Assembly (NCBI GenBank): GCA_965198115.1
Contig: OZ240241.1
Span: 416,001 to 480,000, forward strand
Origin: Candidatus Latescibacterota bacterium
GTDB lineage: Bacteria > Latescibacterota > UBA2968
Direction: 5' to 3'
Length of the DNA: 64,000 nt
The position numbers and the translations under genes were made by a program. The notes beneath the pieces were generated by a model. That model saw only the letters and a program-made list of their open reading frames with translations. It ran no database searches and was not told where the DNA came from. Below, piece by piece: positions 1 to 19,694 of this stretch. The first letter of the stretch is position 1; each line of letters opens with the position of its first letter.

Positions 1-417
1 GTCTTCACCGGCGATTACTATCCCGAAAAGCTGAGGAAGTTCGGAGCCGAAGCGGTTGCCGATTCCACGATGACGGCAAAGCAGTGGGCCAGAAAGCAGG
101 CGGCAGAGAATCTTCAGCTCGACCAGGACGGGCTTGGCGGCGACCAGGTGGGCTTCCAGGAGCCCGGCATCCCCGAGGGTGGCAATGTTGCTGCCCCCGA
201 TTTTTCGTCCATCGTGCATTCCCGTATCGCCTCGGGTGTCGATCCGGTCCAGGATACGAACTTTAAGGAAGTCCTCGAGACGCCCCCTTCGCCGGTTCCC
301 ACATCGACAGACACGGTAAAGTTCTTAAAGAAGAAGGAAGATGAACTCGTAGGGCGCGGATACACCAGAGAACAGGCCCGAACGATGATCGAAAGGGCAC
401 TTGCCAAGCAAGGATAG
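1..417 (+). CDS. Phage-type hypothetical protein, 5'-partial (frame open from base 1)
   Basis: No stop in this frame from 1 to TAG at 415-417; next ATG follows 2 nt later (operonic with the giant protein). Confidence 0.6.
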   Translation, partial: VFTGDYYPEKLRKFGAEAVADSTMTAKQWARKQAAENLQLDQDGLGGDQVGFQEPGIPEGGNVAAPDFSSIVHSRIASGVDPVQDTNFKEVLETPPSPVPTSTDTVKFLKKKEDELVGRGYTREQARTMIERALAKQG

Positions 418-419
418 CA

Positions 420-3400
420 ATGGAATTTGCCTCTCTTGACAGCCTCATAGAAACAGAGCGTAAGAGGTTCGACAGGCTCAACGCCCTGATCGACTCTGAA
501 GCGGATGCCTTCAAGATCGAAGACCCCGTTCAGCGTCAAAAGGTGAAGTCTGATGCGCTGACAAGCCGGTTGGCCAAAACCACGCCCGTCCGTGAAACCC
601 CCGAACTTGAAGACAACCTTTACGGCCGCGATGAGTTGCCGACACCGACACCGCCGAAACCCCAAGGCATCGGCGCGGAGTTCGTGAAAGGCGTCAAAGG
701 AGCAGCTACAGGCGGCATTCCGGCGATGGCGGGGTCCTCTATCCAGATGGGGGCAAGACAGCTCGAGGGTCTTTCTGAGCCCAAGACGTTCTTTGACTAC
801 GTCGCGAAAGCAGCCTTGACGGTGGCTTCTCCTGCTGTCAGCGGTGCTCTGTCCTTCACATCGAACGAGACCAAAAAGGCTGCCACAAACTGGCTCCGTG
901 AGGTCGGATCAAACATCCGGGAATATGGACGGAAACGACAGCTGGCAAACGCACCCGAAGTGACGCTCGCCGATGCGATCGAAAACCCCAGGAAGTTTGA
1001 CAGGTGGGCCGCCTACGCCTTGGGATCTGGCGGCGTCTACATGGCCCCGTCGATGGTGGGCTCCCTGATCTTCGGCCCTGCAGGGGCCATCCTGCCCTCC
1101 TACGCTCTGGCCCACGGCGAAATTTCCGATGAATTGATCGAGGAGGGAATTGAAGATCCCGCCTTTGCCGCTGCACTTGCGGTGCCGGTGGCCGGGCTCG
1201 ATGCGATCGGCGCCACTCGTGCCACAGCACCCGTGCGGAAAGAGGCCATCAAGCGCCTCATAAAAACCGGGATGACCAGGACGCCGTTGCGCGAGGTACT
1301 CGGGGGAGCAGGGACCGAGAGCGCAACCGAAGGCGGACAGGAACTGATGATGGCCATTGCCAACGGCCTCCGTGCGGACAAGAGCTGGGACACGATCTGG
1401 GAGGATGTGAAGGTCCGCGTGCCCGAGGGGATGGCGCAAGGCGGCTTGGTCGGCGGAACGATGACGGCGGGAACGACACTCGCCGGAAGGCTCCAGAAGG
1501 GTCAAGACCTGACCGACGAGCAGAAGACACAGCTTGAGGCCGACATCGAAGAACTGGTAGCCACCGAGCCGGTCGCCGAGCCTGAGCCGGTCGCCGAGCC
1601 TGAGCCGGTCGCCGAGCCTGAACCAGCCGAAGGTTCTCAGGTCCCCATCTTGGGTAGCCAAACCGTCATAGAGGAAATTCGCCGGGAGCTGACTGGGCGA
1701 CAAGACGTGATAAACCGCGCTACTGCTATGCTCGAATCCGGCAAGTCTGAGCGCACCGGCTACAAGCTGACGCCCAAGCAGATCAAGATGGCTGAAGAAA
1801 CGATTGAGGAGCAGAACAACCTGATAGAGGCGAAGCTGAAAGAAGTGGAGCGGGATTTCAACAAGGGCACCGCCGACAAGCTGAGAGCGGAACTTCAGTT
1901 TGAACCCAAAGCTGCCCCTCCAAAGAAGGCCACTGAGGAGGAGCCAGCTATCGAGGAGCCGGCTGCCGAACCCGCCGAGCAGCCGGCACGCTTGAGAGAT
2001 AAGTGGAAAAGCGATCTTCACCGCCTCGACGCGGAGATCCACGACCTTCAAGATGCGCGAGACGCCGTCGACGCGATGCCGGCTCGATGGGAAGATCTAC
2101 AGCCTCTGTGGAAAAAGCACGACAGTATTGAAAAGATGGTCGACGAAGCCAACGAGAAGGGACCCCTGGGTCGATCCGTCAGGATTGATCGAATCGAAAA
2201 GGCAATCACGGATCTCGCGGCCGGTATCGAGGATAGGAGAAGGCAACAGCAGTCTGAAGCCGCTGAGGAAGCGCCCGCCGATGCGCCCATCGTCCTTGAA
2301 GGTGCAGATGCTACCGAGCCCACCGCCACTGAGGAGCCCACCGCCGCAACCCCGACAAAATTGACCTCAGGCGCTTGGGTTGCTCGTGTCCAGAGCGCAA
2401 CCAGGCCCGAGCACGGTGACGAGCTCACGATCACCACACGGTCAGGAAAAACCTGGACCGCATACGTTCTTTCCGTTGAGAGTGTCACCCGCGACGGGGC
2501 GTTCGTCGTCTCCACCACAAAACAGCGTCCCATGCGTGCGATCGTCGTCCCAGAGGAGGAGCCTACCGCCACGGAGGAGCCTACCGCCACGGAGGAGCCC
2601 ACCGCCGTCGATGACATCCTCAAGACCTTCAACGACAAGTTCGTGAATATCCCCTGGGAGGACGCGGACCGGGTTCGACGCCTCATTGCAAAGGAGATTC
2701 CGGCCGAGGTTGCCGAGGACACCGCCTATCGCAACGTCCGGGAAAGCTCCGACATGCAGAACGCCTGGATCGAGCATGACGAAGCCCTGAAGCGCGTGAT
2801 GACGACGGACGTGCTCAACGACGACGTGCAACTCTACAAGGAGTTCACAGACAACGAGGGATTCCGGCAATGGCTCACGGATAAAGTTTTCGAGATGACC
2901 TATAAGCCTGCAAAATGGTCTTTCGAGCCCGTCTTCCCAGCAGCTACCGGCAGCGCCCTCAATGAGGACGCACCACCTACCGCGCCTGCCACTGAGGATG
3001 CGCCCACCGCTGCCGAACCTACCGCCCTTGATACGATGAAAAGCGAGCTTCAGCGCCTCGATAAGAAGATCCTCGACCTGCGAGGACCTGACACGACATC
3101 AGCTCTATGGGCAGAGCACGACAGGCTCCGAAAAAGAAAGACGGAGATTCAAAAGATGATCGAAAAAGCCCCAGGTATTCGGGGCCTGGGTCATGCCAAC
3201 ATGATCAATCGAATCGAAAAGGCAATCCAGGATCTCACGGTCGAGATCCGCAAGGCTGCACCCACCAAGCCGGCCGCCGAGCCCACCGCTGCCGAGGCGA
3301 TGACGGAGAAGTGGAAAGACGAGCTTATGCGCCTCGACGTGGCGATTCTCGACCTGGCTCGCGATGACGTTTCTGGCGTGACTGATCTACGGGCAGATCA

Positions 3401-3875
3401 CAGCAGGATTTTCGAGATGATCGAAAAGCTCCCAAAGGAGCAAGTCGAACAGGTAATCACGGATCTCGCAGCCTCGGTCGATGATCTTCAAAGACGCCAG
3501 CAGGCTACAGCAGAAGGGGAGCCCGCCGAGGCCGGCGAAGATGCACAGCCTACCACACCCACCGAGGAGCCCGCCGATGAACGAACACGCAAAGAAGGAG
3601 AACCTGATGGGGTTCGGGTGGATGGCGATGAACCACTGGGAGGAGTTTCTACCACGGATGTACAAGAAACTGAAGGAGGAGGGGACACTGATACAGAGGG
3701 CCTACGAGGCCCAGGAGATGACGACGGATCTGGTGATGCGTCTGACCGACAGGGGGAGGATGCAGATGCACGAGGCGAAGGAACTGGCCCTACCCGAGTG
3801 GATACTCCTGCCAGCAGAGAGCGAGAGCGACGACCTGCCATAAAGGGCGGACTTCACGGCCCCGGAGGGCTTTGA
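420..3875 (+). CDS. N-terminal part of a giant polyvalent (DarB-like/LPD-type) phage internal protein
   Basis: 1151 aa; Gly/Ala-rich hydrophobic N-terminal block typical of ejected virion proteins; modules separated by PEPVAE/PTATEE linkers; runs into a DarB-type MTase across a +1 frame break near 3845. Confidence 0.75.
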   Translation: MEFASLDSLIETERKRFDRLNALIDSEADAFKIEDPVQRQKVKSDALTSRLAKTTPVRETPELEDNLYGRDELPTPTPPKPQGIGAEFVKGVKGAATGGIPAMAGSSIQMGARQLEGLSEPKTFFDYVAKAALTVASPAVSGALSFTSNETKKAATNWLREVGSNIREYGRKRQLANAPEVTLADAIENPRKFDRWAAYALGSGGVYMAPSMVGSLIFGPAGAILPSYALAHGEISDELIEEGIEDPAFAAALAVPVAGLDAIGATRATAPVRKEAIKRLIKTGMTRTPLREVLGGAGTESATEGGQELMMAIANGLRADKSWDTIWEDVKVRVPEGMAQGGLVGGTMTAGTTLAGRLQKGQDLTDEQKTQLEADIEELVATEPVAEPEPVAEPEPVAEPEPAEGSQVPILGSQTVIEEIRRELTGRQDVINRATAMLESGKSERTGYKLTPKQIKMAEETIEEQNNLIEAKLKEVERDFNKGTADKLRAELQFEPKAAPPKKATEEEPAIEEPAAEPAEQPARLRDKWKSDLHRLDAEIHDLQDARDAVDAMPARWEDLQPLWKKHDSIEKMVDEANEKGPLGRSVRIDRIEKAITDLAAGIEDRRRQQQSEAAEEAPADAPIVLEGADATEPTATEEPTAATPTKLTSGAWVARVQSATRPEHGDELTITTRSGKTWTAYVLSVESVTRDGAFVVSTTKQRPMRAIVVPEEEPTATEEPTATEEPTAVDDILKTFNDKFVNIPWEDADRVRRLIAKEIPAEVAEDTAYRNVRESSDMQNAWIEHDEALKRVMTTDVLNDDVQLYKEFTDNEGFRQWLTDKVFEMTYKPAKWSFEPVFPAATGSALNEDAPPTAPATEDAPTAAEPTALDTMKSELQRLDKKILDLRGPDTTSALWAEHDRLRKRKTEIQKMIEKAPGIRGLGHANMINRIEKAIQDLTVEIRKAAPTKPAAEPTAAEAMTEKWKDELMRLDVAILDLARDDVSGVTDLRADHSRIFEMIEKLPKEQVEQVITDLAASVDDLQRRQQATAEGEPAEAGEDAQPTTPTEEPADERTRKEGEPDGVRVDGDEPLGGVSTTDVQETEGGGDTDTEGLRGPGDDDGSGDASDRQGEDADARGEGTGPTRVDTPASRERERRPAIKGGLHGPGGL
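1566..1619 (+). repeat. 18-bp tandem repeat x3 (EPVAEP linker)
   Basis: GAGCCGGTCGCCGAGCCT three times. Confidence 0.95.
2556..2606 (+). repeat. 18-bp tandem repeat x~3 (EEPTAT linker)
   Basis: GAGGAGCCTACCGCCACG repeats; related copies near 2316-2346, 2975-3027, 3279 and 3560. Confidence 0.9.
2607..2903 (+). other. Embedded domain resembling the C-terminal domain of Type I restriction subunit HsdR
   Basis: ILKTFNDKF.NI.W.DADRVR.LI..EIPA.VA.DTAY.N....SD.QNA.IEHD.AL.RVM....L.DD..LYK.F.DNE.FR.WLTD.VF..TY matches my recollection of the terminal ~100 aa of a widespread HsdR family. Confidence 0.75.
3577..3843 (+). CDS. Overprinted small protein (TnpV-like), +1 frame inside the giant gene
   Basis: GAGGAG 7 nt before ATG; 88 aa of globular composition (FGWMAMNHWEEFLPRMYKKLKEEGTL...AKELALPEWILLP), while the host frame is low-complexity G/D/E/R. 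Confidence 0.65.
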   Translation: MNEHAKKENLMGFGWMAMNHWEEFLPRMYKKLKEEGTLIQRAYEAQEMTTDLVMRLTDRGRMQMHEAKELALPEWILLPAESESDDLP

Positions 3876-5661
3876 GGCCGAGATCGAAAAGGGCGGGCAG
3901 AAAACCAAGTATCGCAAGAACGTGGCCGCCGTTAAACTCCTGAAGACGCTCGAAGCCGAAAATCGCGCCGCTACCCCAGCCGAAAAGGAGACATTGGCCC
4001 AATACACCGGCTGGGGCCACTCTCCCCAAGCGTTCGTTTATACCCTACAGGAGCGCGCCAGGCTGAGACAGCTGTTTCCCGAGGATCAGGCCGAAGGGAT
4101 TTTCGACCAGTGGAACAACGAAAAATGGGAGAAAGAACAGGCCGAGCTACAGGATCTCTTTACCGAAGATGAGTACACTTCGGCGCGGGACTCGATCGCC
4201 AATGCCCACTACACGAGCCTTCCGGTGATAAGGTGGATGTGGGATGCCACCCAAAGGTTCGGCTTCCAGGGCGGGAAGATTCTCGAACCGGGTCTTGGCA
4301 TCGGCAACTTCTTCTCGGTGATGCCATCAGGAGAGATGAGGGGGAAATCAAAACTCACCGGTATCGAGATGGACGACCTCTCCGGCCGCATTGCTCAAAA
4401 GCTCTACGAGCGGGCCGATGTGCGTATCTCCCCTTACCAGAAGACGCGGCTCCCCGACGGTTATTTCGACTTGGCCATTTCCAACGTTCCCTTTGCCGAT
4501 GTCCGAATTCAAGACAAGGCTTACAAGGAACAGCTGACCCTCCACAACTATTATTTCCGTAAGTCTTTGGACAAGGTGAGGCCGGGCGGGGTCGTGGCCT
4601 TTATCACGTCGCGCTTCACGATGGACGGTTCCAAAAATCAGGAATTCCGCCGTCGGATTTCTGAGGAGGCCGAGTTCATCGGCGCGATCCGGTTGCCCAA
4701 CACGGCCTTTAAGAAAAACGCCCACACAGAAGTCACGACCGATGTGATCTTTTTGCGCAAGCTCAACGCCGGCGAGGCCCCCACCGGAGAGAATTGGGTC
4801 GACCTTGTCGATAAGAAGATCAAAGACAAAGAAGGCCGACCGGTCGAAATGGCACTCAATTCCTACTACGACCGGCACCCCGATATGATGATGGGCCGCC
4901 TCACGGCCACAGGGTCGATGTATAGTGCGGGAGAACCCACCCTTGCCCCCTACGGCGATCTTGACAAGCTGATGGCAACGGCCCTTGAAAAGCTGCCCGA
5001 GAATGTAGTGGCTGGGCCCGAGTCGAGCCTGTCCAAGCCGGCTGAGGAGACCCTACTGGCCCCCGACAGCGTGCGAGAAGGGCAGTTCGTTGTCAACGAA
5101 AACGGGGATTTGACCCAGAATTCTAAGGGAAAGTTGGAAGCCTACAAGGCTCCCAACGATACTGCCGTCCTCCGCATCAAGGGGATGGACAGCATCAGGG
5201 CAAAGGTGCGCGACCTGCTTTTCTCCCAGACCGAAGGGATCGAGGAAGCCGATCTCAAGAAGAAGCAGGCGAACCTTCTTAAGACCTACAAGTCCTTTGC
5301 CAAGAAATACGGCCCCCTCAACAACGCGGTCAACAAGCGGCTGTTTTCCAGTGACCCCGATGTGGCGTTGCTTTCGTCCCTGGAAGTCATGGACTACGAT
5401 GAGTCTGGAAAGAATTTCGCAGAGATCGAGACCACCCCTCAGCAATCTTTGAAAGCCATACCTGAAGGAAAGAGGAACACTGAGTTGACGTCCATGGCGG
5501 GCGCGATGCGGAGTAGAGGGATGAGCGGGACAGAGATCGCCGCTGCACTTAACGTCGCAAATCGAGAGCGCTGCCAGCCTCCGCTACCGGATGAGGAAGT
5601 TCACTCTATAGCCCTCAGCATTGATCGCTACGAGGCCGGCTCGCCGGGGGAAGGAAGATAG
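3844..5661 (+). CDS. DarB-like N6-adenine DNA methyltransferase with C-terminal PriCT-1 domain (probable continuation of 420..3875)
   Basis: GGQKTKYRKNVAAVKLLK..ATPAEK..LAQYTGWG, NAHYT, motif I ILEPGLGIGNF, motif IV SNVPF, AIRLPN.AF; C-terminal IPEGKRNTEL..AGAMR..G...PPLPDEEV..IA.SI.RY. Confidence 0.85.
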   Translation, partial: RADFTAPEGFEAEIEKGGQKTKYRKNVAAVKLLKTLEAENRAATPAEKETLAQYTGWGHSPQAFVYTLQERARLRQLFPEDQAEGIFDQWNNEKWEKEQAELQDLFTEDEYTSARDSIANAHYTSLPVIRWMWDATQRFGFQGGKILEPGLGIGNFFSVMPSGEMRGKSKLTGIEMDDLSGRIAQKLYERADVRISPYQKTRLPDGYFDLAISNVPFADVRIQDKAYKEQLTLHNYYFRKSLDKVRPGGVVAFITSRFTMDGSKNQEFRRRISEEAEFIGAIRLPNTAFKKNAHTEVTTDVIFLRKLNAGEAPTGENWVDLVDKKIKDKEGRPVEMALNSYYDRHPDMMMGRLTATGSMYSAGEPTLAPYGDLDKLMATALEKLPENVVAGPESSLSKPAEETLLAPDSVREGQFVVNENGDLTQNSKGKLEAYKAPNDTAVLRIKGMDSIRAKVRDLLFSQTEGIEEADLKKKQANLLKTYKSFAKKYGPLNNAVNKRLFSSDPDVALLSSLEVMDYDESGKNFAEIETTPQQSLKAIPEGKRNTELTSMAGAMRSRGMSGTEIAAALNVANRERCQPPLPDEEVHSIALSIDRYEAGSPGEGR

Positions 5662-5664
5662 TTG

Positions 5665-5725
5665 ACCAGCTTTAGATCTGGTGGCCGAGAGGCCGTGGGG
5701 GTTCGAATCCCCCCCTTTCGCACCA
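5665..5725 (+). other. 3' half of tRNA-Leu(TAG): att-site remnant
   Basis: ACCAGCTTTAGATCTGGT, long variable arm GGCCGAGAGGCC, GGGGGTTCGAATCCCCC, ...CGCACCA; no 5' acceptor or D arm upstream. Confidence 0.85.
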
Positions 5726-5760
5726 ATTATAAACACCATAATACAGGACAGGAATTTACG

Positions 5761-6874: not shown

Positions 6875-6929
6875 ACATGCCCCCTTTGCGAGAAAGTGAG
6901 ATGTTCACGGGTTTTATGAGAAGTTGGAC

Positions 6930-9470
6930 TAGTGTCGTGTCCCGCGAATAAGTTTTAGAAGTCTGTTGAGTTTATCGAGGACCGAGTCAGCGGTTGCCGT
7001 CCACACGAAAGGCTTTGAGTTCTGATTGTATTGGTCTGTGAACTTCTGGATGCAGGTGATCAGATCCTTGACGTTCCGAAAGGTTCCTCGTCGGATTGCT
7101 CTTTGTGTGATGATGCCGAACCAGAGAGCTATAATCAAAAGGTGTGGAAAAAGAGAAAGGGCGACCCTACCCTTCCCGTGAGATAGTTGATTCACACAAA
7201 ACCGGGTGAGAGGCCCGGTTGGGAAGGAGGATCGCCGTGAAGGAACATACGCATAGAGCCCCATTGAAGTCCATGCCGACGTGGGAGACGGTTGACGATT
7301 GGATCCGTGAAGAGATCCAGAGCCGGTTCCAGTCCATTCTGGAGGAGGAGGCGACCGCGTTCTTGGGCCGGTCGTGGTATGAGCGCCGAGCCGAGGTCGA
7401 TAGCTCCAGGGGCTACAGGAACGGCTACGGCAAGCCCCGGCGTCTCTCGACGAGCTGCGGAACGATCAAGGTCCGGCGTCCCCGGGTTCGTGGTCTGGAA
7501 GAGCGGTTTGAAAGCCGCATCCTCCCCCTGTTCGCCCGGAGAACCAGGGCCATTGGAGATCTGCTTCCCGACCTTTATCTCCACGGTCTCTCCCAGGGCG
7601 ACTTCGAGTTGTCTTTGCGTGCGCTGCTCGGTGATGGCGCGCCGCTTTCGCCGACCTCGATCGCTCGTCTTCGAGGGAAGTGGGAGGTCGACTTCCAGGA
7701 CTGGAAAGAAAGGCGTCTGGATAATCGCGAACTGGTCTACGCCTGGGCTGATGGCATCTACGTCAAAGCCGGGCTCGAGCGCGAGAAGGCGTGTCTGCTG
7801 GTCGTGATCGGCGCGATGAGCGACGGCAGCAAGGAGATCCTGGCGATAGAACCCGGTTATCGAGAGTCTACAGAATCCTGGCTCACGGTGCTCCGGGATC
7901 TCCGGGATCGCGGGCTCGAACATCCTGTCCTGATCGCCGCGGACGGGAATATGGGCATCTGGGCGGCCGTTGATCAGGTCTGGCCAGAGAGCCGGCAACA
8001 ACGGTGCTGGAACCACAAGATCCTCAACGTGCTCGACAAGGTCGCCAAGCGTGCACAGGCTGAAGCCCGCGCACTGCTCGTCCAGATCCCCTATGCCGGC
8101 ACGAAAAAGGAGGCCGAGAAGCTCCGGAAACGCTTTGCCGCACGGTATCGCTCACAGTTCCCTGCCGCCGTGGAGACGCTCGAAAGAGACTGGGATCGGA
8201 TGGTCACGTTCTACGACTTCCCGAAGGAACACTGGAAACACCTGAGAACCACGAACGTCGTCGAGAGCCCCTTTGCTTCCGTTCGGCTTCGCACAAACGC
8301 CGCCAGGCGATTCAAGAAAGTCAGGAACGCCACGGCTCTCATCTGGCGTACGCTCAAGGTCGCAGAGAGCCGATTCAGGAAACTCACCGCGCCACACTTG
8401 CTACAACAAGTCTACGATCAGAAACACTCAACCGGACCGCAGGTCGAAACCGGGAAGATGGCCGCCTGATTTCTTTTACACACCTATTGACCTGAGCTCA
8501 CCAGATCTCTACCTGGTTTAGCCAGGAGGCATACGTTGGTGTGTAGTGCACGTGGTATCTTTTACGTGAGGTGAGCCAACGTTTGACGTTCTGGTGCTTG
8601 TGAGTGCCGTAGTTATCGACGACCAGATGGATGTCGAGATCCTTCGGGACGTTTTTGTCAATGTGCTTGAGGAACTGAAGGAACTCTCTGTTGCGATGTC
8701 TGGGCTTGCACTGAGTCAGGACTTTTCCTGATGCGATGTTGAGCGCCGCAAAGAGGGTAGTCGTGCCGTGCCGTGTATAGCTGTGAGTGACGCCCTCGAC
8801 ATACCCGAGGCCCAAAGGGAGAATCGGTTGCGTCCGTTCGAGTGCTTGAATCTGGCTCTTCTCGTCTATGCAGAGCACCATTGCGTTGTCCGGCGGGTTC
8901 AGGTATAAACCGACGATATCCCTGACTTTCTCGACGAAGAAGGGATCGTTCGACAGCTTGAAGTGCTTCTGCCGATGCGGCTGCAGTCCAAAGGCTCTCC
9001 ATACACGTTGCACTGTGGACTTTGAGAGGCCCGTCTCATCGGCCATCGCTCGACAGGTCCAGTGGGTGGCATTCTTCGGCTTCTTCTTGAGCGTCTTGTA
9101 GATGAGTGAGGAGATCTCTTCGTCGCTAACGGACCGCGGACCACCAGGACGTAACTCGTCATACAGTCCCATCAAGCCTTGCTCGCAGAAGCGACGGCGC
9201 CATTTGCCAACGGACGCTCCGGACAACCCGACTCGTTCGGCGATCTCCTGATTGGTCAGACCACCATCGCTCAGCAGGACGATCTTCGCCCGACGCACCA
9301 GAGCGTGAGGCATGCTGCGCGAACCGGACAACGACTGGAGTTGATCGCGGACTTCATCACTGATGTTCAGTGGTTGTAACGGACGACCTCTTGCCATCGG
9401 TTCCTCCTCACAATGAGTGCCTGAGGAACCTTACGACTGTATCACGAATTTTTCTAGTTATTCCTGAGAT
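6930..9470 (-). mobile_element. IS630-family element interrupted by IS256; left end truncated
   Basis: Transposase 9397->8500 plus 7125->6929 (CIDEKSQIQAL, VVDNYGTHK, WLNQVEIW|FGII); removing IS256 and one ACCAGA restores the frame. Confidence 0.9.
7126..8499 (+). mobile_element. IS256-family element A, copy 1 (transposase ~7219..8469)
   Basis: WADGIY, ADG, QRCWNH, RTTNVVES motifs; imperfect IRs GAGCTATAATCAAAAGGTGTG / GAGCTCAGGTCAATAGGTGTG; 6-bp duplication ACCAGA. Confidence 0.95.
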
Positions 9471-9840
9471 GGGTTACAACACCCGGAAGCTCGTTGAGAT
9501 TAAGTCCAGCTGAGTCTGTCAGCGACCGGTTACCTTCGTTTTTCCTTGAGCCGAGTTTCTCTTCGGGATCAGGTAGCCAATGAGAGTCGATAGAGTTTCA
9601 GAAGGTTGTGTGTGAGACAGATCAGGTTCCATTCTCTGATGACTTTGTGGATTCGGCGGAATGAGAATCGGGTGAAGTTCCGAACGGATTTGATCTGTCC
9701 AAACACGGGTTCGATGATCTGTTTTCTTTTCCAGTAGGTGCAGCGACCTTTCTGTGTGAGAAGCTTTCTCGCCATTTTGTCTTTCGTCGTTGCGCCCTTG
9801 GGGATCCGTCCCCTGGGGCAGGTCGCGATGGGCGTTCCAT
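9471..9840 (-). mobile_element. IS1182-family 3' fragment
   Basis: Near-identical to ~42340-42705; RKQIIEPVFGQIK motif. Confidence 0.9.
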
Positions 9841-10046
9841 TGTGGCGACGACAAAACAGAAACGGGGTGCGGGAGGAAGCTGTAAACCGCCTCAAGGAGG
9901 CGGGGATAACAGCGTCGGCGAGGATGGTCGATGCGGCGCTCCGCGCCCGGACGAGCGACGGTGAGGACAATGGGCAGGGACAACGTCTTCTGCTCACCGA
10001 CCCCGAGCCGTGGGACGGCCCCGTGGACGGTGCTGACTTGATAGAT
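9841..10046 (+). pseudogene. Fragment of a satellite-type primase/DUF3631-like protein
   Basis: GQGQRLLLTDPEPWDGPVDGADLID motif; cut by IS on both sides. Confidence 0.55.
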
Positions 10047-11466
10047 GGCTATATCCGGATCTCTCAACGAGATGAAGTGGGTGAAGGTGCCGTGGTTCCT
10101 GGCATGGGGGCGCGGTTAGAGTGTGCGGAACCTCTTCGGAATCTGCTCAGGGATGTTTATGTCTCCGACGGTAAGGAAGATCATATCGTTGAATGCGTCG
10201 AGTGTGCGGAATCCGCTGGCTCGGTTCTTGACGATTTGGACGATTCGGTTGAGGCCTTCGGCGATGGCGTTGGTAAGACGCGTGTTCACGAATGCGAGGA
10301 CGCCGAAGAAGTGCTGTCGCAGGGTCCTGACGAACTTTCGCAGGGGTTCAAGTCGACTTCTGAGTGCGGACGTCGTCCAGCATTTCAGGAAGCGTTCGGC
10401 AGCCCAGGGCGCTTTGTATTCCCAGAACTGCTCGAACTCGTCCTTGAGTCTCCAGGCTCTATAGATTCGGTAGTTCGCCTTCTCCAGTGCTTTGAGTGTC
10501 CGAGTATCCCCTCTGGAGCGTGTCGCTGAGTGCCGGTAGAGGAGCCATCGGAGGCCCTTCATGGCTTTGCGCTCATCCGGGGCAGCTTTACGCCACTGGT
10601 CCTTACGGACCTCGTCAACGGCGGCATTGAGAGCCTTGACGATGTGAAAGCGATCGAGGACCAGCTTGGCATTCGGACAGTGTTCCTGGATGGCTCCGAT
10701 GTAAGCTTCGCTCATGTCGCAGCAGGCCCACTCGATCTTGGATCTCTGGTAGGGACTGAGAGCCTCTGTGAAGAACCGATCGATCGTTTTACGCGCCCTG
10801 CCGCGGCCAACCCACACCACGCAGGAGCGGTCCAGATCGTAAACGAGCGTGGCGTACCTGTGACGCTTGGCGTAGGAGATCTCGTCGATCCCGATGGTTT
10901 TGAGCCCTCGGATACGATGACCTTCACGAAGCCGCGTGATGGATCGGTGAAGGAGATCCGACAGCGTCGAGGCAGAGATGCGCAGTAACTCGGACGCCGC
11001 CTTCTGCGTCATGGTCTGGCAGTAGCGCAGCATGGCATACTCGAAGCGATACGTCACCCGAGAGAACCGCTCCGCCCACGGAATCTCCTCGACCACACGA
11101 CCGTGGGTAGGACACCGAATCTCCCGAGGATGGTAGAGAAGCCAGACCCTCCACCCGCACACCGGAATGTCACGCCACCGACGCGGATGGGGCATTGTGC
11201 GGACGATTTTACCTCGACGGCCGCACTCCGGACAACAACAACCATTCTTATGTGGCTTTACGGCGATGACGAAGCAGCTTCTCCCCTCAAACCACCAGCT
11301 GACAACACGGAACCCCTTGAATCTCAGCAGTTTCGATAGTAATCTGCTCCCGGTCATAGGTCGCACCCCCTTCGCTTTGATTGTCCTACACACACAACCA
11401 AGCGTAGGGAACGATCTATGACCTTGTCATTCTATAGTTTCACCGTTGAGAAACCCGGATAGAGCC
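10047..11466 (-). mobile_element. ISL3-family element (transposase 10116..11393)
   Basis: Zn finger CPECG...CPTHG, IGIDE, CCDM, LDRFH, TNAIAEGLN; IRs GGCTCTATCCGGGTTTCTCAACG / GGCTATATCCGGATCTCTCAACG. Confidence 0.97.
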
Positions 11467-11471
11467 TTATT

Positions 11472-12898
11472 GGCTATATCTGGATCTCTCAACGAGCTGA
11501 AGTGGGTGAAGGTGCCGTGGTTCCTGGCATGGGGGCGCGGTTAGCGTGTGCGGAACCTCTTCGGAATCTGCTCAGGGATGTTTATGTCTCCGACGGTAAG
11601 GAAGATCATATCGTTGAATGCGTCGAGTGTGCGGAATCCGCTGGCTCGGTTCTTGACGATTTGGACGATTCGGTTGAGGCCTTCGGCGATGGCGTTGGTA
11701 AGACGCGTGTTCACGAATGCGAGGACGCCGAAGAAGTGCTGTCGCAGGGTCCTGACGAACTTTCGCAGGGGTTCAAGTCGACTTCTGAGTGCGGACGTCG
11801 TCCAGCATTTCAGGAAGCGTTCGGCAGCCCAGGGCGCTTTGTATTCCCAGAACTGCTCGAACTCGTCCTTGAGTCTCCAGGCTCTATAGATTCGGTAGTT
11901 CGCCTTCTCCAGTGCTTTGAGTGTCCGAGTATCCCCTCTGGAGCGTGTCGCTGAGTGCCGGTAGAGGAGCCATCGGAGGCCCTTCATGGCTTTGCGCTCA
12001 TCCGGGGCAGCTTTACGCCACTGGTCCTTACGGACCTCGTCAACGGCGGCATTGAGAGCCTTGACGATGTGAAAGCGATCGAGGACCAGCTTGGCATTCG
12101 GACAGTGTTCCTGGATGGCTCCGATGTAAGCTTCAAGCTTCGCTCATGTCGCAGCAGGCCCACTCGATCTTGGATCTCCGGTAGGGACTGAGAGCCTCTG
12201 TGAAGAACCGATCGATCGTTTTACGCGCCCTGCCGCGGCCAACCCACACCACGCAGGAGCGGTCCAGATCGTAAACGAGCGTGGCGTACCTGTGACGCTT
12301 GGCGTAGGAGATCTCGTCGATCCCGATGGTTTTGAGCCCTCGGATACGATGACCTTCACGAAGCCGCGTGATGGATCGGTGAAGGAGATCCGACAGCGTC
12401 GAGGCAGAGATGCGCAGCAACTCGGACGCCGCCTTCTGCGTCATGGTCTGGCAGTAGCGCAGCATGGCATACTCGAAGCGATACGTCACCCGAGAGAACC
12501 GCTCCGCCCACGGAATCTCCTCGACCACACGACCGTGGGTAGGACACCGAATCTCCCGAGGATGGTAGAGAAGCCAGACCCTCCACCCGCACACCGGAAT
12601 GTCACGCCACCGACGCGGATGGGGCATTGTGCGGACGATTTTACCTCGACGGCCGCACTCCGGACAACAACAACCATTCTTATGTGGCTTTACGGCGATG
12701 ACGAAGCAGCTTCTCCCCTCAAACCACCAGCTGACAACACGGAACCCCTTGAATCTCAGCAGTTTCGATAGTAATCTGCTCCCGGTCATAGGTCGCACCC
12801 CCTTCGCTTTGATTGTCCTACACACACAACCAAGCGTAGGGAACGATCTATGACCTTGTCATTCTATAGTTTCACCGTTGAGAAACCCGGATAGAGCC
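11472..12898 (-). mobile_element. ISL3 tandem copy; transposase frameshifted by a 7-bp duplication
   Basis: Same element after 5-bp spacer TTATT; AAGCTTC duplicated at 12128-12141. Confidence 0.95.
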
Positions 12899-12899
12899 T

Positions 12900-13134
12900 A
12901 AAAAAAGCGCTCGCTGATTTCGAGTTCAACGCGCTCGGACAGCTTGAAAAGGCGGCCAAGTTAGATCCGCGATCGTGGACGGCCCTTGCGTGGATCCTCG
13001 AGCGCCGATTCAATCACTGGCGGCGACCAGCGGATCGAGTGTCAATGGAACAATCGGGCACGATCACACTCGCCCAGATAGTGAAGGCTGCAGCGGATCG
13101 GCGTGAGCGCGAGGGACTTGCTTCGAAGAGATGA
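12900..13134 (+). pseudogene. C-terminal fragment of a terminase-small-subunit-like protein
   Basis: Own translation: KKALADFEFNALGQLEKAAKLDPRSWTALAWILERRFNHWRRP...* (W.A.AW.LERR motif); 5' end lost at ISL3. Confidence 0.6.
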
Positions 13135-13269
13135 GAGAGAGTGATTCATCGTAGCGTGGAAACTAACCGCATGTCAACCGTATCGAGCGATCGGATGCTA
13201 CGGAAGAACACGCGCCACTCCCAGACAAATCCATAGACTCCGCCCAGGAGAAAACCATGATTGCAAAGT

Positions 13270-13316
13270 TGGTGGGCCCAGCAGGACTCGAACCTGCGAC
13301 CGATCGATGATGAGTC
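13270..13316 (-). other. 3' half of a CAT-anticodon tRNA (Ile2/Met): att-site remnant
   Basis: Reverse complement GACTCATCATCGATCGGTCGCAGGTTCGAGTCCTGCTGGGCCCACCA; no 5' half. Confidence 0.8.
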
Positions 13317-13683
13317 ACTATCCGGTGCCTTCCACTTTGCATCGGTTTATCCGGGTTTACCCAGGTTTGTTCCAAGAGGTCACCGTGATATGCGCCCTAT
13401 GTCATAACACGTTGTCCACTAAATAGTTGTCCTCCAAGTATCGGGGATGGACACTTTTTGGACACCTTGGGCGGACGGGTTGGTTGAGCCATTTGGACTG
13501 TCCACCGTCCACGATCTCCAGGTAAAGGGTTCTTTGTACATCAGCTTGACAGGTGTTTACAATGTCAATCCGTCTGATTTGGCCAGAACTCACTCTATGA
13601 ATGGGTTTTCTCTATTTACGTGTCGGTGTGCGCGTTACAATCTGGGAGAGCTCTTCCGATTTCTTTACGCATAACCGGGTTCG

Positions 13684-14523
13684 ATGAAACTCAAGAACAA
13701 ACATTTCGAGGCAATCGAGCAGATCGTGGCCTGTCAAATTGAGGGCGACGGCATCTCGGAGATGGCACGTCGTTGTGCGGTGTCACGCCAGACGATCTAC
13801 AGCTGGCTGCGCGATTCAGCCTTTCGGGAGGTGCTCGATCAGCGTCGTGCCCTGTGGGATCGCGACATCGGCCAAATCAGGTTGACGCGCCGAAGGGCAA
13901 GGATTGAGGATTTGGCTGCGATCGCCGAGGATCCGGCGACGAATGACTCGATCAAGCTGCGGGCTTTGAAGCAGATAGCCGATGAGACGGCCGCTGACGT
14001 GGAGGGGATGTTGGAAGCCCTGCAGGAGCAAATTGATCTTCTCGAGCGCCAGATCGCCGGTGAGGTCGGGTTGGCCCTTCACCGTCCAGAAGGCAAAAGT
14101 CCGATGAAACTCAAGAACAAACATTTCGAGTCGATCGAGCAGATCGTGGCCTGTCAAATTGAGGGCGACGGCATCTCGGAGATGGCACGTCGTTGTGCGG
14201 TGTCACGCCAGACGATCTACAGATGGCTGCGCGATTCAGCCTTTCGTCAGGTGCTCAATCAGCGTCGTGCCCTGTGGGATCGCGACATCGGCCAAATCAG
14301 GTTGACGCACCGAAGGGCAAGGATTGAGGATTTGGCTGCGATCGCCGAGGATCCGGCGACGAATAACTCGATCAAGCTGCGGGCTTTGAAGCAGATCGCC
14401 GATGAGACGGCCGCTGACGTTGAGGGGACGATCGAGTCCCTGCAGGAGCGAATTGATCTTCTCGAGCGCCAGATCGTCGGTGAGGTCGGGTTGGCCCTTC
14501 ACCGTCCAGAAGGCAAAAGCACA
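13684..14523 (+). repeat. 420-bp in-frame tandem duplication of an HTH (phBC6A51/terminase-small-like) gene
   Basis: Units 13684-14103 and 14104-14523 are highly similar; ISEMARRCAVSRQTIY.WL.D..F HTH. Confidence 0.85.
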
Positions 14524-15368
14524 ATCCGTGGTCACGGTTGGTCGGGGAAGCGGAAGCTTACTATCCGACGCTCGCTCGTGACGGTGCGGCGGACACGGGC
14601 TATGAGGTGTGCGGGTCGATGGTCGTCGCCGTTAATGCGGCTGAGAGGGACACTTTCGAAGAGGCGAGCGTGGGTGTGGTGCGGGGGGATGGACGCGGCG
14701 ACAAGGCCGCCGTCGTGGATGGCGCGCGTGCTGGAGCAGTCGGGCGTGGCTCACGGGCTCGAGGTGCGGCGCGCTTCCGTCGATCGTGTCGAGGTCGAAG
14801 GTGGGACAGCGACAGCGGTTGTCGCGGACGGTGAGGAGCTGACCACGGGGCTCCGTCGTCATCGCCGGGGGGCGTGGTCTAACGCGTTTGGCGAGCAACT
14901 CGGGGTTCGTCTCCCGGTCGGGCCGATGCGGGGGCAGATCGCGCATCTGGATCTTGGGGAGACGGATACATCGGGCTGGGTCATCGTGAGCGGGTTTCGC
15001 GGTCACTACCTGGTACCGTGGGACGACAATCGTGTGGTTGCCGGTGCGACACGGGAGATGGATGCGGGCTATCGGGTCGAGACGACGGTCGAGGGGATGC
15101 TCGAGGTGTTGTCCGAAGCGATCCGGGTCGCCCCCGGTCTCCGAGGAGCTCGGGTGAAAAGGAGTTTCGCGTCGGACTGCGGCCGGCGACGTCCGACGGC
15201 TTTCCCATCATCGGCGTCATCCCCGACGCAGCGAATGTGCACGTGGCGACGGGTCACGGCCCGATGGGGCTCCACCTGGGACCCTACAGCGGAAAGGTTG
15301 TGGCCGATGCGATTCTCGGCGAGAGAGACGAGACTTTTGCCGTGTTTGGAGTCGAACGATTCGGTTGA
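14524..15368 (+). pseudogene. Degraded FAD-dependent oxidoreductase (ThiO/DadA-like)
   Basis: GAWS, PMRGQI, GLRPATSDGFPIIG, VATGHGPMGLHLGPYSG in different frames; N-terminus missing. Confidence 0.85.
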
Positions 15369-15467
15369 TGCGACGAGACAGCTACTGAGGACACAGAGGT
15401 GATGGAACAAAGTTCCAATGACCACCGCGGTACCAAGGTCTTTGACGTAGCAAAGTGAGGTGAAGTG

Positions 15468-15510
15468 ATGGAGTACCGAAAACTCGGGCGAAGTGGGGTG
15501 AAGGTTTCGG
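15468..15510 (+). pseudogene. First ~14 codons of an aldo/keto reductase
   Basis: MEYRKLGRSGVKVS after GAGGTG. Confidence 0.6.
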
Positions 15511-15630
15511 GTGGATCATCGAACGTCACGGCTACAAGACGCCCTGAACAGGCTAGAAACGCACTCACGGCGACTCGAAAGGCCGCCTGAATACACTCAC
15601 CCGAGTGTCCAGACAACCGCGGGCTTTACA
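15511..15630 (+). mobile_element. IS3/IS481-like 3' end remnant
   Basis: WIIERHGYKTP integrase-core tail and terminal TGTCCAGACAACCGCGGGCTTTACA. Confidence 0.5.
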
Positions 15631-15993
15631 CTCCTGCTGTGCGGTCTCGGGATTCGCGCGACCCGGCTAAGGACGCCGAACCCGTCCGGCAGGTACCGCA
15701 TGGGAGGGTGTCCAGAATCTTTCACATAGTGAGAGCGGCAACCCTCGGTCTGCGTGATGACGCCGCCGAAGCGTCATGGCGACGTCGAGGGCGAGGAGAC
15801 GTCGGTAGGAAGGACTCGTCGCGCTCGAGCGTCGACGCCGACGCCTCCGCGAATTAAGAGCGGATCCTTGAACACACGTCCGGAGCCAGGGGATTGCACA
15901 ACCGGTCTTTTCTACAATCGTCCGGGTGTCCTCCGACACGGAGCTGCTCAGGGCGCAGCACGCGACTTGCCCGCGGATCGGTCGCGGTCTAGA

Positions 15994-16881
15994 TCAGCCG
16001 CCGAACACGTGCCTGACGGTGAACAGCAGCGTCCAGTAACGCGTGCCGGTAAACGTGTCGGTGTGGGTGAAGTTCGGGTCCAGAGCGTGGGCCGAGTGCA
16101 GCTGGTATCCGCCGGTGTATTCGATGTCGGCGAGCATCGAGTACGTCAGCTTCGCGCCCAACGCGGTCCGTTCGTTCAGGCCGAAGTCGGTCCCGGCGTG
16201 CAGGTGCCCGGCCAGCACGGTGTCGGAGAAATCGGCGTCCAGGCGGGCGTTGTAGGACGACAGGGGCGGGTCGTGGGCGGCGCCGTTTCCTGCCGTATCC
16301 AGGTACTCATCGGTGAAGCGCACCCCATGGATGTCGACGAATGCGGGTCCCACCCCGCCGCCAACGTAGGGGGAAAACCCGGATGCCGCATCGCGGAAGT
16401 CGTAGTACGCGTTGAACGCGAGGATACGGACGGCAAGGTCGTCAATCGAGGACTCTGTATGCGAGGTGACCGCAGTGTTTTGCCGATCCTCCATCGCTAT
16501 ACCCTCGAGCGTGGTGACGCTGCGAAACATCTGATCGATGTCGTTCCTACGTTGTGCGAACAACAGCTCGAGGCGTGCGCGGTTGAGGATGAACCCGGTC
16601 GAGAGCTCGAACATGGCGCCCGCCCCGGCATCGAGGTCGTAGCCCCAGCGGTATCCGGATACTTCGGGACGGGGGTCTTCGTCGAAGCAGGCGTCCGTCG
16701 GATAGCACAGCGGATCCCGGTTGAAACCCGTCTGGTTGATGTCGGAAGCCCAGTTCGCCCCACCGCCGCTGCCGACGTACCAACCGGACCGCCGCGTGCC
16801 GCTCTGAGCCGACGCGTCCGAGACGGAACAGAGTACCAGGATGCCACCCAGGACTGGTGCAACAAGTGATGCAATACGCAT
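15994..16881 (-). CDS. Outer-membrane beta-barrel protein with signal peptide
   Basis: Signal peptide ...ASAQ, GWYVG, FNAYYDF, FSPYVGGGVG, aromatic C-terminal strand; GGAGG RBS. Confidence 0.8.
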   Translation of the reverse strand: MRIASLVAPVLGGILVLCSVSDASAQSGTRRSGWYVGSGGGANWASDINQTGFNRDPLCYPTDACFDEDPRPEVSGYRWGYDLDAGAGAMFELSTGFILNRARLELLFAQRRNDIDQMFRSVTTLEGIAMEDRQNTAVTSHTESSIDDLAVRILAFNAYYDFRDAASGFSPYVGGGVGPAFVDIHGVRFTDEYLDTAGNGAAHDPPLSSYNARLDADFSDTVLAGHLHAGTDFGLNERTALGAKLTYSMLADIEYTGGYQLHSAHALDPNFTHTDTFTGTRYWTLLFTVRHVFGG

Positions 16882-16965
16882 GAATATCCTCCGCAGGGTC
16901 GTGAAGAAAACCGGATGACTCCTATCGCATCGGCCTGGCGGGCATCCGGTGTCCCGTGTCGGTCG

Positions 16966-17310
16966 TCACGTGGGAAAAGGCAACCAGACGCTTACGTGGC
17001 CCCATCCGATCGGCGAACGCGGCCACTTGCTCATCGCGATCGGCCACGAGCGGCGCCTTGACGACTCGGACGCCTCTTGCGCCGTGATCAGAATCTCATC
17101 ACCCTCGCACCAGTCCAGCCCGCGCAGGACCGTTTGGAACGCTTCGCTCACCCCTCGAGTCAACGCAAGGTCCCCAGGGCCCACACTCAGGAAGCTCGCA
17201 ATCCGGTCGATCGACGCGGTCCGTCTGGGCATCTCCTCGTCGGGATAGGCGATGTGCATCGGCCCGCGCGTCGTCAGTTCTTCCATCAGGGCGGCGTGGG
17301 CGTCTGCCAC
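16966..17310 (-). pseudogene. Aminotransferase class V / cysteine desulfurase fragment
   Basis: IASFLSVGPGDLALTRGVSEAFQTVLRGLDWCEGDEILIT. Confidence 0.7.
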
Positions 17311-17710
17311 CGGCCGTGGCGTGATATCTGTTATAAGTTACTTATAATAATAGACTTATTATCTGCCATACCAACCTTGATGGTGATGACATCGTCGATC
17401 ACGGGTCGGCGCTGGTGTGATTTGGGTAAGGACGAGGGCATTACATCGCTGCGGCGACCGATACTCAGCAAGATAACCCTCGTCAGATGGGGGCTGCAAA
17501 CAAAGCAGCTGTTGCGTCTGCCACCGATTACGAAGACCAGCATTCGAGATATAGAAGAGTGGTCGTCTAAGACAGGCTCTCTCGTCCAAGATCTTTAAAA
17601 GGCGGTTTTCTGGAGCGAGTGTCAGGTAGTTCGATACACAACGAAACGCGTACCTGAAAGCTCCCGCTGGCATACAACTCTATTGTACCATCCCAGTCTG
17701 ACTTCAGTTC

Positions 17711-17767
17711 CCGTAATCCACTCCATCAGCCACGCTTGCCCACCGTTCCCCACTTCGTATCTTGGGT
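17711..17767 (+). promoter_or_regulatory. Orphan copy of the sensor-kinase promoter/leader seen at 55766-55827
   Basis: CCGTAATCC.CTCCATCAGCC..GCTTGCCC.CCGTTCC...ATCTTGGGT shared; TTGCCC-16-TATCTT. Confidence 0.6.
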
Positions 17768-18360
17768 TGACCTGCCCCCATCTATGTGTCCACATCCAGA
17801 GTTAGGATATGGCTGCGGTGAGCGGTTTGGTGACCGCTTCAGGTGCAGGTGGGCGATAGCCCAATGAGCTGTGTGGTCTGATGTGATTGTACTGCCAGCG
17901 CCACCACTTGGTCAACACCCTAGCCTCCTCCAAGGTCGTGAAGATCTCACCGTTGAGTAGCTCGTCTCTGAGCTTCCCGTTGAAGCTCTCGATGTATCCG
18001 TTCTCCCACGGGCTGCCCGGCTCGATGAACAAAGTTCCGACCTCCAACCTCGAGAGCCAGTCCCGAACCGCTTTGGCTACAAACTCCGGCCCGTTATCCG
18101 ATCTGATGTGTTTCGGGACACCATACCTCAGCATCAGCTTCGCCAACGTCCGCAGAACGTCCCGTGATGTTTGCTTGCGAGCGACCTCGATGGTCAGGCA
18201 CTCACGCGTGTATTCATCCACGACTGTCAGGAACTTCAACGGCCTCCCTTCACGTGTGCGATCGAACACGAAGTCGTAGGCCCAGACGTGGTTACGATGC
18301 TCGGGTCTGAGTCTGATGCAGGAGCCGTCGTTGAGCCAAAGTCGACCCCGCGCCCTTTGA
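17768..18360 (-). mobile_element. IS3-family 3' half (integrase core and IRR)
   Basis: WAYDFVFD, RSDNGPEF, PGSPWENGYIESFNG, YNHIRPHSSLGY; end TGACCTGCCCCC. Confidence 0.92.
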
Positions 18361-18371
18361 CGGGAGGACCG

Positions 18372-18759
18372 ATGAAGCTCACCGAAAAGCATCGAATGCG
18401 CGGGGGTGTGTGCCAGGTTGGAATTAGCAGGCCAGGGCTCGAAAACTATGGCTCGAGAGTGTGGGGTTTCGCGGCAGACGATATACAACTGGTGCAAAAT
18501 CCCCGAGTTTTTGGCTGAAAAACTCCGTCGTAAAGCGGTTTTCCGGGTTGACTTGTCCGATATTCCGCTCACGCATCGCCGGAATCGCATCGAGCTCCTC
18601 GCCGGGATTGCGAACGACGCCGGCGAGAGGTCGGGAGATCGGATTCGTGCGGTGAGGGCTATCGCGGATGAGGCGGCGGCCGACGTGGAGGGGATGATCG
18701 AGTCGCTCCAGGAGCAGATCGACCTTTTCGAGCGCCAGATGGCTGGCGACATGTCGTGA
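18372..18759 (+). CDS. Third, diverged HTH/terminase-small-like paralog (frameshift near 5' end)
   Basis: GGAGG + MKLTEKH..., MARECGVSRQTIYNW, IADEAAADVEGMIESLQEQIDL shared with the 13684 units. Confidence 0.7.
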
Positions 18760-18833
18760 CACGTTGCTGACCATCAATCAAGAGCCATCGAGTGAAGGAT
18801 ACTACTTGGCGATGCAGGTTTCCGGAAATAAAA

Positions 18834-19694
18834 GGCTCTATCCGGGTTTCTCAACGGTGAAACTATAGAATGACAAGGTCATAGATCGTTCCCTACGCTT
18901 GGTTGTGTGTGTAGGACAATCAAAGCGAAGGGGGTGCGACCTATGACCGGGAGCAGATTACTATCGAAACTGCTGAGATTCAAGGGGTTCCGTGTTGTCA
19001 GCTGGTGGTTTGAGGGGAGAAGCTGCTTCGTCATCGCCGTAAAGCCACATAAGAATGGTTATTGTTGTCCGGAGTGCGGCCGTCGAGGTAAAATCGTCCG
19101 CACAATGCCCCATCCGCGTCGGTGGCGTGACATTCCGGTGTGCGGGTGGAGGGTCTGGCTTCTTTACCATCCTCGGGAGATTCGGTGTCCTACCCACGGT
19201 CGTGTGGTCGAGGAGATTCCGTGGGCGGGACCGCTCCTGCGTGGTGTGGGTTGGCCGCGGCAGGGCGCGTAAAACGATCGATCGGTTCTTCACAGAGGCT
19301 CTCAGTCCCTACCGGAGATCCAAGATCGAGTGGGCCTGCTGCGACATGAGCGAAGCTTACATCGGAGCCATCCAGGAACACTGTCCGAATGCCAAGCTGG
19401 TCCTCGATCGCTTTCACATCGTCAAGGCTCTCAATGCCGCCGTTGACGAGGTCCGTAAGGACCAGTGGCGTAAAGCTGCCCCGGATGAGCGCAAAGCCAT
19501 GAAGGGCCTCCGATGGCTCCTCTACCGGCACTCAGCGACACGCTCCAGAGGGGATACTCGGACACTCAAAGCACTGGAGAAGGCGAACTACCGAATCTAT
19601 AGAGCCTGGAGACTCAAGGACGAGTTCGAGCAGTTCTGGGAATACAAAGCGCCCTGGGCTGCCGAACGCTTCCTGAAATGCTGGACGACGTCCG
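18834..19694 (+). mobile_element. ISL3 truncated copy with internal deletion
   Basis: IRL at 18834; ~240-bp deletion at ~19228; fused to IS256 at 19694. Confidence 0.92.

Follow-up and report, generated by a model that had tools for sequence, protein, structure and literature searches.

The C-terminal tail of HsdR, a subunit of type I restriction systems, is embedded in the linkers of a DarB-like polyvalent gene in the stretch of Candidatus Latescibacterota DNA analysed here (64,000 nucleotides; contig OZ240241.1, positions 416,001 to 480,000; hereafter the window). Similar tails, recognised by their sequences, recur in other DarB-linked proteins, and complex modelling predicts that the window tail contacts HsdM. 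Our main reading, to which we give a probability of roughly 0.55, is that an HsdR tail in a DarB linker is an HsdM-docking module that competes with HsdR and blunts restriction, the window copy being a decaying remnant.

Origin of the tail module

The tail block comprises 99 aa (2607-2903 of the window, plus strand; six helices predicted) and lies in frame inside a giant open reading frame (ORF; 420..3875), of which it forms residues 730-828. A protein database search returned 258 of 301 candidates at E<=1e-10, and the best 120 of the 258 are 72-77% identical to the tail over 100% of the query; for 118 of these 120, the alignment to the host HsdR spans at least 90% of their own length. The piece derives from the very C-terminal end of complete HsdRs encoded in hsdM-S-R operons; a match to the extreme C-terminus of a type I HsdR family had been noted in a first-pass annotation of this DNA. 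The same annotation had the native proteins ending at a VF..TY motif, which is incorrect: all 120 continue for 3-13 residues beyond TY, and 107 of them for 13. The host's own hsdR (C1:7478749-7481823) matches the tail with 75% amino acid identity, and with 88% nucleotide identity over 295 nt (window 2614-2908). It is the closest copy to the window tail among the 61 genomes searched, and in a tree the window tail is nested among the host's closest HsdRs with support of 100/99. Of the 34 columns that are deeply conserved (in at least 85% of 133 native tails), the window tail retains 31. In a plasmid search, 31 records match (best E 4e-36); among the 30 matches listed, 22 are annotated as type I restriction endonuclease, 3 as hypothetical and 5 are unannotated. 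The phage record matched by the tail is an ordinary HsdR and no captured piece. These results confirm that the block in the window gene originates from the C-terminus of HsdR.

The AF2 model of the window tail has six helices and a pLDDT of 94.6. No Pfam, NCBIfam or PHROG model covers the tail at a useful score, the Pfam models for the HsdR C-terminus of EcoR124I and EcoKI do not match it at E<=1, and a PDB sequence search gave no significant match. Foldseek with the model finds nothing at E<=0.001 in PDB or BFVD, and the best hit of a VIA fold search (Z 6.2, archaeal virus coat proteins) is within the range of common helical arrangements. The EcoR124I and EcoKI tails are absent from both match lists, an absence that is compatible with a shared fold; ESM Atlas matches to the tail are uninformative. 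Judged from these comparisons, the tail belongs to a widespread group of HsdRs of about 1000 aa that is distinct from that of EcoR124I and EcoKI, and no solved tail was found. A DNA-mimic reading of the tail was also considered and rejected: its net charge of -10 (host tail -5; native tails -2.7 +/- 2.5) is suggestive and far too weak.

The carrier gene

ORF 420..3875 (plus strand; 1151 aa) is the N-terminal part of a DarB-like polyvalent gene, with a Gly/Ala-rich N-terminus, acidic Pro/Thr linkers and small inserted modules, and has no curated Pfam, NCBIfam or PHROG match. The block had been described as bounded by PTATEE linkers. This holds on the left, where tandem copies of the repeat occupy 2553..2606 (plus strand), but on the right there is a looser linker of PT/PA type, some 25 residues further along. 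Before the tail is a module of about 65 aa (2361..2555, plus strand) with a weak likeness to a tail segment of another DarB (L032), which at 5.7 bits and a pairwise E of 0.001 is a lead only; its ESM Atlas matches lie below 0.9. A helical repeat module is found at 1998..2223 (plus strand) and, in a second copy with 69% nucleotide identity, at 3030-3243. Nested in the +1 frame of the giant ORF is a TnpV-like ORF of 120 aa (3481..3843, plus strand; phrog_938 E 1e-5; PF14198 E 0.025, below the cut-off). The nested ORF is also present in a sibling fragment, and its frame has a dN/dS of 0.48 versus 1.47 for the giant frame; selection apparently acts in the nested frame.

The gene does not encode one giant protein, as had been supposed. 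The first ORF stops at 3875, and the DarB-like part that follows, an LPD36-type lead-in and an N6-adenine methyltransferase (MTase; 3844..5391, plus strand), is in the +1 frame (phrog_10089 E 1.3e-146; 36% identity to the relative P0274 over 510 aa). The frameshift zone at the linker/MTase junction (3844..3875, plus strand) is 2 nt shorter than the corresponding stretch of a sibling fragment in the same genome, where linker and MTase are in a single frame. The MTase is in turn truncated near 5390, before the SF2 helicase: no SF2/SNF2 helicase follows it in the window gene, and the ORF runs instead into a fused PriCT_1 domain (5452..5634, plus strand; PF08708 E 4.5e-12) and ends at 5661. The complete MTase-SF2 helicase dyad is present in the relatives P0274, L163, L164 and L169. 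The DarB-like designation is thus sound for the lead-in and the MTase, while the helicase is absent from the window copy. Assembly error was set aside as the explanation for the frameshift: in contigs from two runs of a single sample, from which the assembly may have been made, both breaks are present with 0 differences from the window, an agreement that may stem from the shared sample.

The element is reduced to a remnant of 6 kb that lies between two tRNA-Leu sequences. Its right edge is a 3' piece of tRNA-Leu(tag) (5675..5727, plus strand), with which a 1.27-kb copy of C1:4955255-4956524 starts; an intact tRNA-Leu(taa) is located about 300 bp before the window. The 3' part of the remnant's upstream gene occupies 1..417 (plus strand), and just before the window is a 94-nt block that it has in common with the giant gene. 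No structural (virion) gene was matched by PHROG among the 5 remnant proteins scanned, and 30 further genomes from the host family gave no match to the N-terminus of the giant gene. The window gene is a damaged, decaying remnant of a DarB-like mobile-element gene.

Farther along the window, most ORFs of 6929-20800 resemble transposases or fragments of transposases, many of them nested. A 130-aa HTH module is found in tandem and dispersed copies (13684-14493 and 18406-18759) and has 16 tblastn matches in the genome.

Decay of the window copy and of its host target

In the host type I locus (C1 7478749-7487096), hsdR and hsdS are open. However, an IS near codon 140-152 interrupts hsdM, which also has a further stop, and the target of the window tail is therefore gone in the present host. 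An orphan, frameshifted 3' end of hsdR also lies elsewhere in the genome (C1 7746451-7746742); it is 87% identical, and its 5' boundary is within 7 nt of that of the captured block. Orphan hsdR 3' ends are common debris: of 148 tail-bearing proteins, 37 carry foreign sequence on the N-terminal side of the tail, mostly as unrelated singletons. Pieces of the giant gene's siblings (60-400 bp, 78-89% nucleotide identity) are likewise scattered over the chromosome, on C1 at 14791-14935, 19524-19586, 1014366-1014659, 1132915-1133078, 7497687-7498086 and 8410482-8410881. On the minus strand the genome also has 20 tRNA genes in an array (C1 2870558-2872531), of a kind carried by mobile elements.

The branch leading to the window tail has 18 non-synonymous and 4 synonymous changes (dN/dS 1.27; neutrality not rejected, p 0.8), compared with N:S ratios of 3:6 and 5:7 on the two branches of hsdR; for native segments of the giant gene, a comparison with sibling fragments gives a dN/dS of 0.15-0.43. 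Sixteen substitutions and one insertion in the window tail are to residues found in no more than 5% of 121 close HsdRs. Selection on an overlapping frame was considered as the source of the non-synonymous excess and discarded, as the two other plus-strand frames carry stops there. Because the 1151 codons have remained free of stops, the most likely course is that the tail drifted while the gene was still translated. That drift was not wholly blind: only 2 of 17 window changes strike deep-conserved columns against 6.3 expected (p 0.02; R54W, exactly at the 85% threshold, is not included), and a test based on profile scores gives p 0.04-0.07. As a working weapon the window copy is not supported, being frameshifted, truncated and at a dN/dS of about 1.3 in a host with a broken hsdM.

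Related tails in other DarB-linked lineages

By sequence comparison, the fusion is shown not to be unique: HsdR tails recur in four DarB-linked lineages (F1 to F4), one of them apparently in conjugative elements. An HMMER search with the whole ORF gave 1095 matches, and the sister proteins of the giant ORF (P0122, P0123, P0124, P0146 and P0194) and the members of F2 come from the best 150 of the 1095. F1 consists of the window gene, P0122 and P0146, which have the same tail, with a one-codon insertion and several substitutions in common; at two positions a single residue is missing from the P0122 tail. F2 has its tail after the helicase, in eight proteins (P0254, P0241, P0212, P0272, P0274 and P0278-P0280), of which P0272 and P0274 are cluster mates and P0274 is a full-length MTase-helicase of 2625 aa. 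The F2 tail is about 47-50% identical to that of the window. Among distant F2 members the tail is 55-66% identical, whereas the post-helicase domain is 35% identical and the linkers barely align.

In F3, half a tail is located at the start of the gene right after DarB in two Dehalococcoidia genomes (L030 and L031), the L031 half tail scoring 32.5 bits, where none of 500 shuffles exceeds 2.2; in L030-L032 the tail is absent from the DarB ORFs proper. The ORF that follows DarB in L031 (11764-14004; also in L030) has 747 aa, repeats the C-end of DarB at its own C-end and has no Pfam match. F4 was reached from a pattern scan of IMG/VR, in which 72 loci contained 73 tail-bearing ORFs: 64 HsdRs, 8 broken or short ORFs, and the single DarB-like ORF that served as the starting point. 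F4 carries two-thirds of a tail before the MTase at 6 loci, three of the ORFs being 2648-3180 aa long, and a reciprocal search with its tail returns HsdRs at E 1e-8. A topoisomerase III gene is close by in both F4 loci whose neighbours were checked (2 of the 6), and at L163 an ArdC/LPD-bearing primase is nearby; from gene content, this neighbourhood looks typical of gut conjugative elements. At L163 the tail-bearing DarB-like ORF (7637-18221) stops within the helicase C-domain, and it is followed by an EF-G-like gene that presumably resembles a tetracycline ribosomal protection gene. The DarB-like ORFs of L162, L164 and L165 also have MutS domain I in their linkers.

In three close F4 pairs dN/dS is 0.06, 0.08 and 0.10; the distant pairs are near or at saturation, with values of 0.16-0.49 where computable (two of the 15 pairs were not computed). 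The F4 tail is under strong purifying selection. In trees F2 and F4 form separate groups, and F1 represents a separate, recent capture, because its DNA is still 88% identical to native hsdR. However, AU tests over 68-98 columns do not reject a single origin (p 0.13, 0.30 and 0.71), and the trees do not prove independent origins of the lineages.

Other searches were negative within their scope. An exact-pattern search of IMG/VR gave no relative of P0122, P0241 or the window tail; JGI metagenomes gave one HsdR-type piece. A word-based search for proteins above 2016 aa with the window tail returned none, a false negative, the P0274 tail being more distant. No F2 member was found in 401 genomes of the class Dehalococcoidia, and no F4-like match in an ORF above 1021 aa in 301 genomes of the phylum Bacteroidota.

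Predicted contact with HsdM

The first-pass annotation took docking of the HsdR C-terminus on the methyltransferase core as established from EcoKI and EcoR124I. The tail has no match to those proteins, in which the role is itself termed proposed or assumed for the EcoR124I helical domain (in excerpts of PMC5248579); what favours docking here is a complex model. Because the docking role in EcoR124I and EcoKI shows no detectable link to the tail, the window tail was modelled with an HsdM of its own group, the intact protein of L034, which is 75% identical to the host's hsdM remnant. The complex scores 0.80, against 0.05 for the best of three controls; the runs agree in at least 94% of contacts, and the partner has a pLDDT of 88. 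The score mark is reached by 116 of 157 solved pairs and by 2 of 215 mismatched pairs. The model, which had been proposed as a check, supports predicted binding of the window tail to cognate-family HsdM. Native tails are present in the alignment, and the pass may therefore reflect the family, not the window copy.

The predicted face comprises tail residues 39-56 and 62-82 and HsdM residues 64-75, 219-224, 253-257, 304-305 and 369-373. In 11 captured sequences from the four lineages, the 14 columns that vary least within 32-69 include 9 contact columns (40, 43, 44, 48, 49, 52, 53, 55 and 56), and conserved positions on the face include N43, S48, D49, N52 and E56. In F4, contact cells are native-like in 70 of 88 cases versus 84 of 165 elsewhere, and in columns 39-56 eight of 12 contact columns are invariant versus none of the 6 others, although the cells depend on one another and the search patterns that led to F4 contained contact residues. 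The corresponding counts in F2 are 115/138 and 319/423 (p 0.06). In the window tail, the contact columns are not spared (19/23 native-like versus 63/72 elsewhere), and A44V strikes a contact residue that is 99% conserved. Conserved basic residues off the predicted face (R54 and R87), on the other hand, are often lost in captured copies. Across lineages, the residues predicted to touch HsdM are those that have been kept.

How a captured tail might act

P1 DarB is established to travel with the DNA, which it protects in cis (excerpts of PMC5512222). By analogy with P1 DarB, a DarB-type protein would enter together with the element's DNA, and its tail is predicted to dock on HsdM at the site of the R subunit. 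There it would compete with HsdR and exclude it near the incoming DNA, and the freed M2S1 core might then methylate instead of cutting. The exclusion step has a precedent in that cleavage-dead HsdR that is still competent for assembly is trans-dominant, lowering restriction in trans (excerpts of PMC5248579). A wider scenario is that the docking tail has been stolen time and again by phages and conjugative elements as a DarB-borne decoy, turning the restriction complex into a mere methylase, and that the device is old and conserved in gut elements. We put this a little short of even odds.

The decoy proposed in the first-pass annotation has to be weighed separately for the family and for the window copy. 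For the latter, the best description is that hsdR 3' debris is tolerated in the flexible linkers of DarB, as a folded spacer without a restriction-related role. Change in the window tail is neutral-like, the same linker holds other small modules, tails with foreign flanks are frequent (37/148), and pieces of related mobile genes, 60-400 bp long, are scattered over the genome. This account fits the window copy better than the family, for which we consider it unlikely: in F4, dN/dS is 0.06-0.10 and synonymous sites are close to saturated, no block among the F2 linkers is better conserved than the tail, and all four lineages keep surface residues of the predicted contact as well as the core. The decoy therefore finds its favour at the family level, in the recurrence across four lineages, the purifying selection in F4 and the complex model, and not in the window copy as a working weapon.

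If the tail does bind HsdM, it might recruit the host M2S1 to DarB on incoming DNA for quick methylation, leaving general restriction unlowered. The predicted binding and conservation would serve this reading equally, and the tail is nearly always fused to, or beside, a DNA-bound MTase-helicase; moreover, DarB acts in cis (excerpts of PMC5512222) and lambda Ral raises host methylation (excerpts of PMC3874165). However, occupancy of the R site would itself exclude HsdR, so recruitment and competition overlap, and recruitment on its own appears rather unlikely to us. Least likely, and in our judgement improbable, is that the tail has been co-opted for contact with the element's own DarB methyltransferase or with DNA. 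The MTases of DarB are EcoKI/TaqI-like, with an N-terminal domain reminiscent of HsdM-N (excerpts of PMC5512222), and C-terminal regions of HsdR also affect translocation and ATPase (excerpts of PMC5248579). But the position of the tail relative to the MTase differs between lineages, and the tendency of captured copies to lose the basic R54 and R87, outside the predicted HsdM face, argues against DNA binding. Competition with HsdR for HsdM is the reading we prefer for the family as a whole.

Relation to known systems

Ocr is a DNA mimic. ArdA is another (PMC2731889). Like the proposed tail, Ocr, ArdA, ArdB/KlcA and Ral are mobile-element proteins that act on type I complexes; however, none is described as derived from an Hsd subunit in the parts of PMC3874165, PMC12602166 and PMC5512222 drawn on here. 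The window gene shares its LPD36-type lead-in and N6-adenine MTase with P1 DarB and with the dyad of methylase and SF2 helicase (Iyer et al., 2017, PMC5512222, in part), and its long linkers with small accessory domains are those of P1 DarB-type polyvalent proteins (same source). It differs from the dyad in carrying an HsdR-derived module, in being frameshifted and in lacking the helicase. The words HsdR and decoy have 0 occurrences in the main text of PMC5512222, whose supplements may list the segment as an unnamed domain. HsdR's C-terminal region in EcoR124I and EcoKI is likewise C-terminal and helical, with a proposed methyltransferase contact (excerpts of PMC5248579), but no Pfam model, PDB sequence or fold match connects it with the window tail.

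Closest in principle are the trans-dominant HsdR mutants and McrB-S, in which an incomplete subunit still assembles and lowers restriction by competing for a partner (excerpts of PMC5248579 and PMC12707154). The former are laboratory mutants and the latter is the system's own regulator, whereas the captured tail is carried by the invader; McrB-S may nevertheless be regarded as a natural analogue of the proposed competition (excerpts of PMC12707154). A literature search, with most subscription papers outside its scope, gave no report of an HsdR-derived anti-restriction module, and the consulted portions of reviews covering HsdR, DarB, fusion and anti-restriction describe no such fusion.

Implications

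The way in which DarB counters type I restriction is still debated on genetic grounds, as shielding or as methylation in cis. A captured docking tail of 65-100 aa is a concrete candidate for a contact with the restriction complex, and is small enough to be assayed alone. The mechanism is a strong hypothesis, better approached via the tails of F4 and F2 than via the degenerate window copy, which for its part shows capture at an early stage, with 88% DNA identity to the host hsdR still remaining. If true, the proposal would assign a function to an unmodelled domain of HsdR and would add subunit mimicry, in which a defence subunit is copied and not DNA, to the known anti-restriction strategies. 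It would also be relevant to the question of how restriction barriers in the gut are crossed by conjugative elements.
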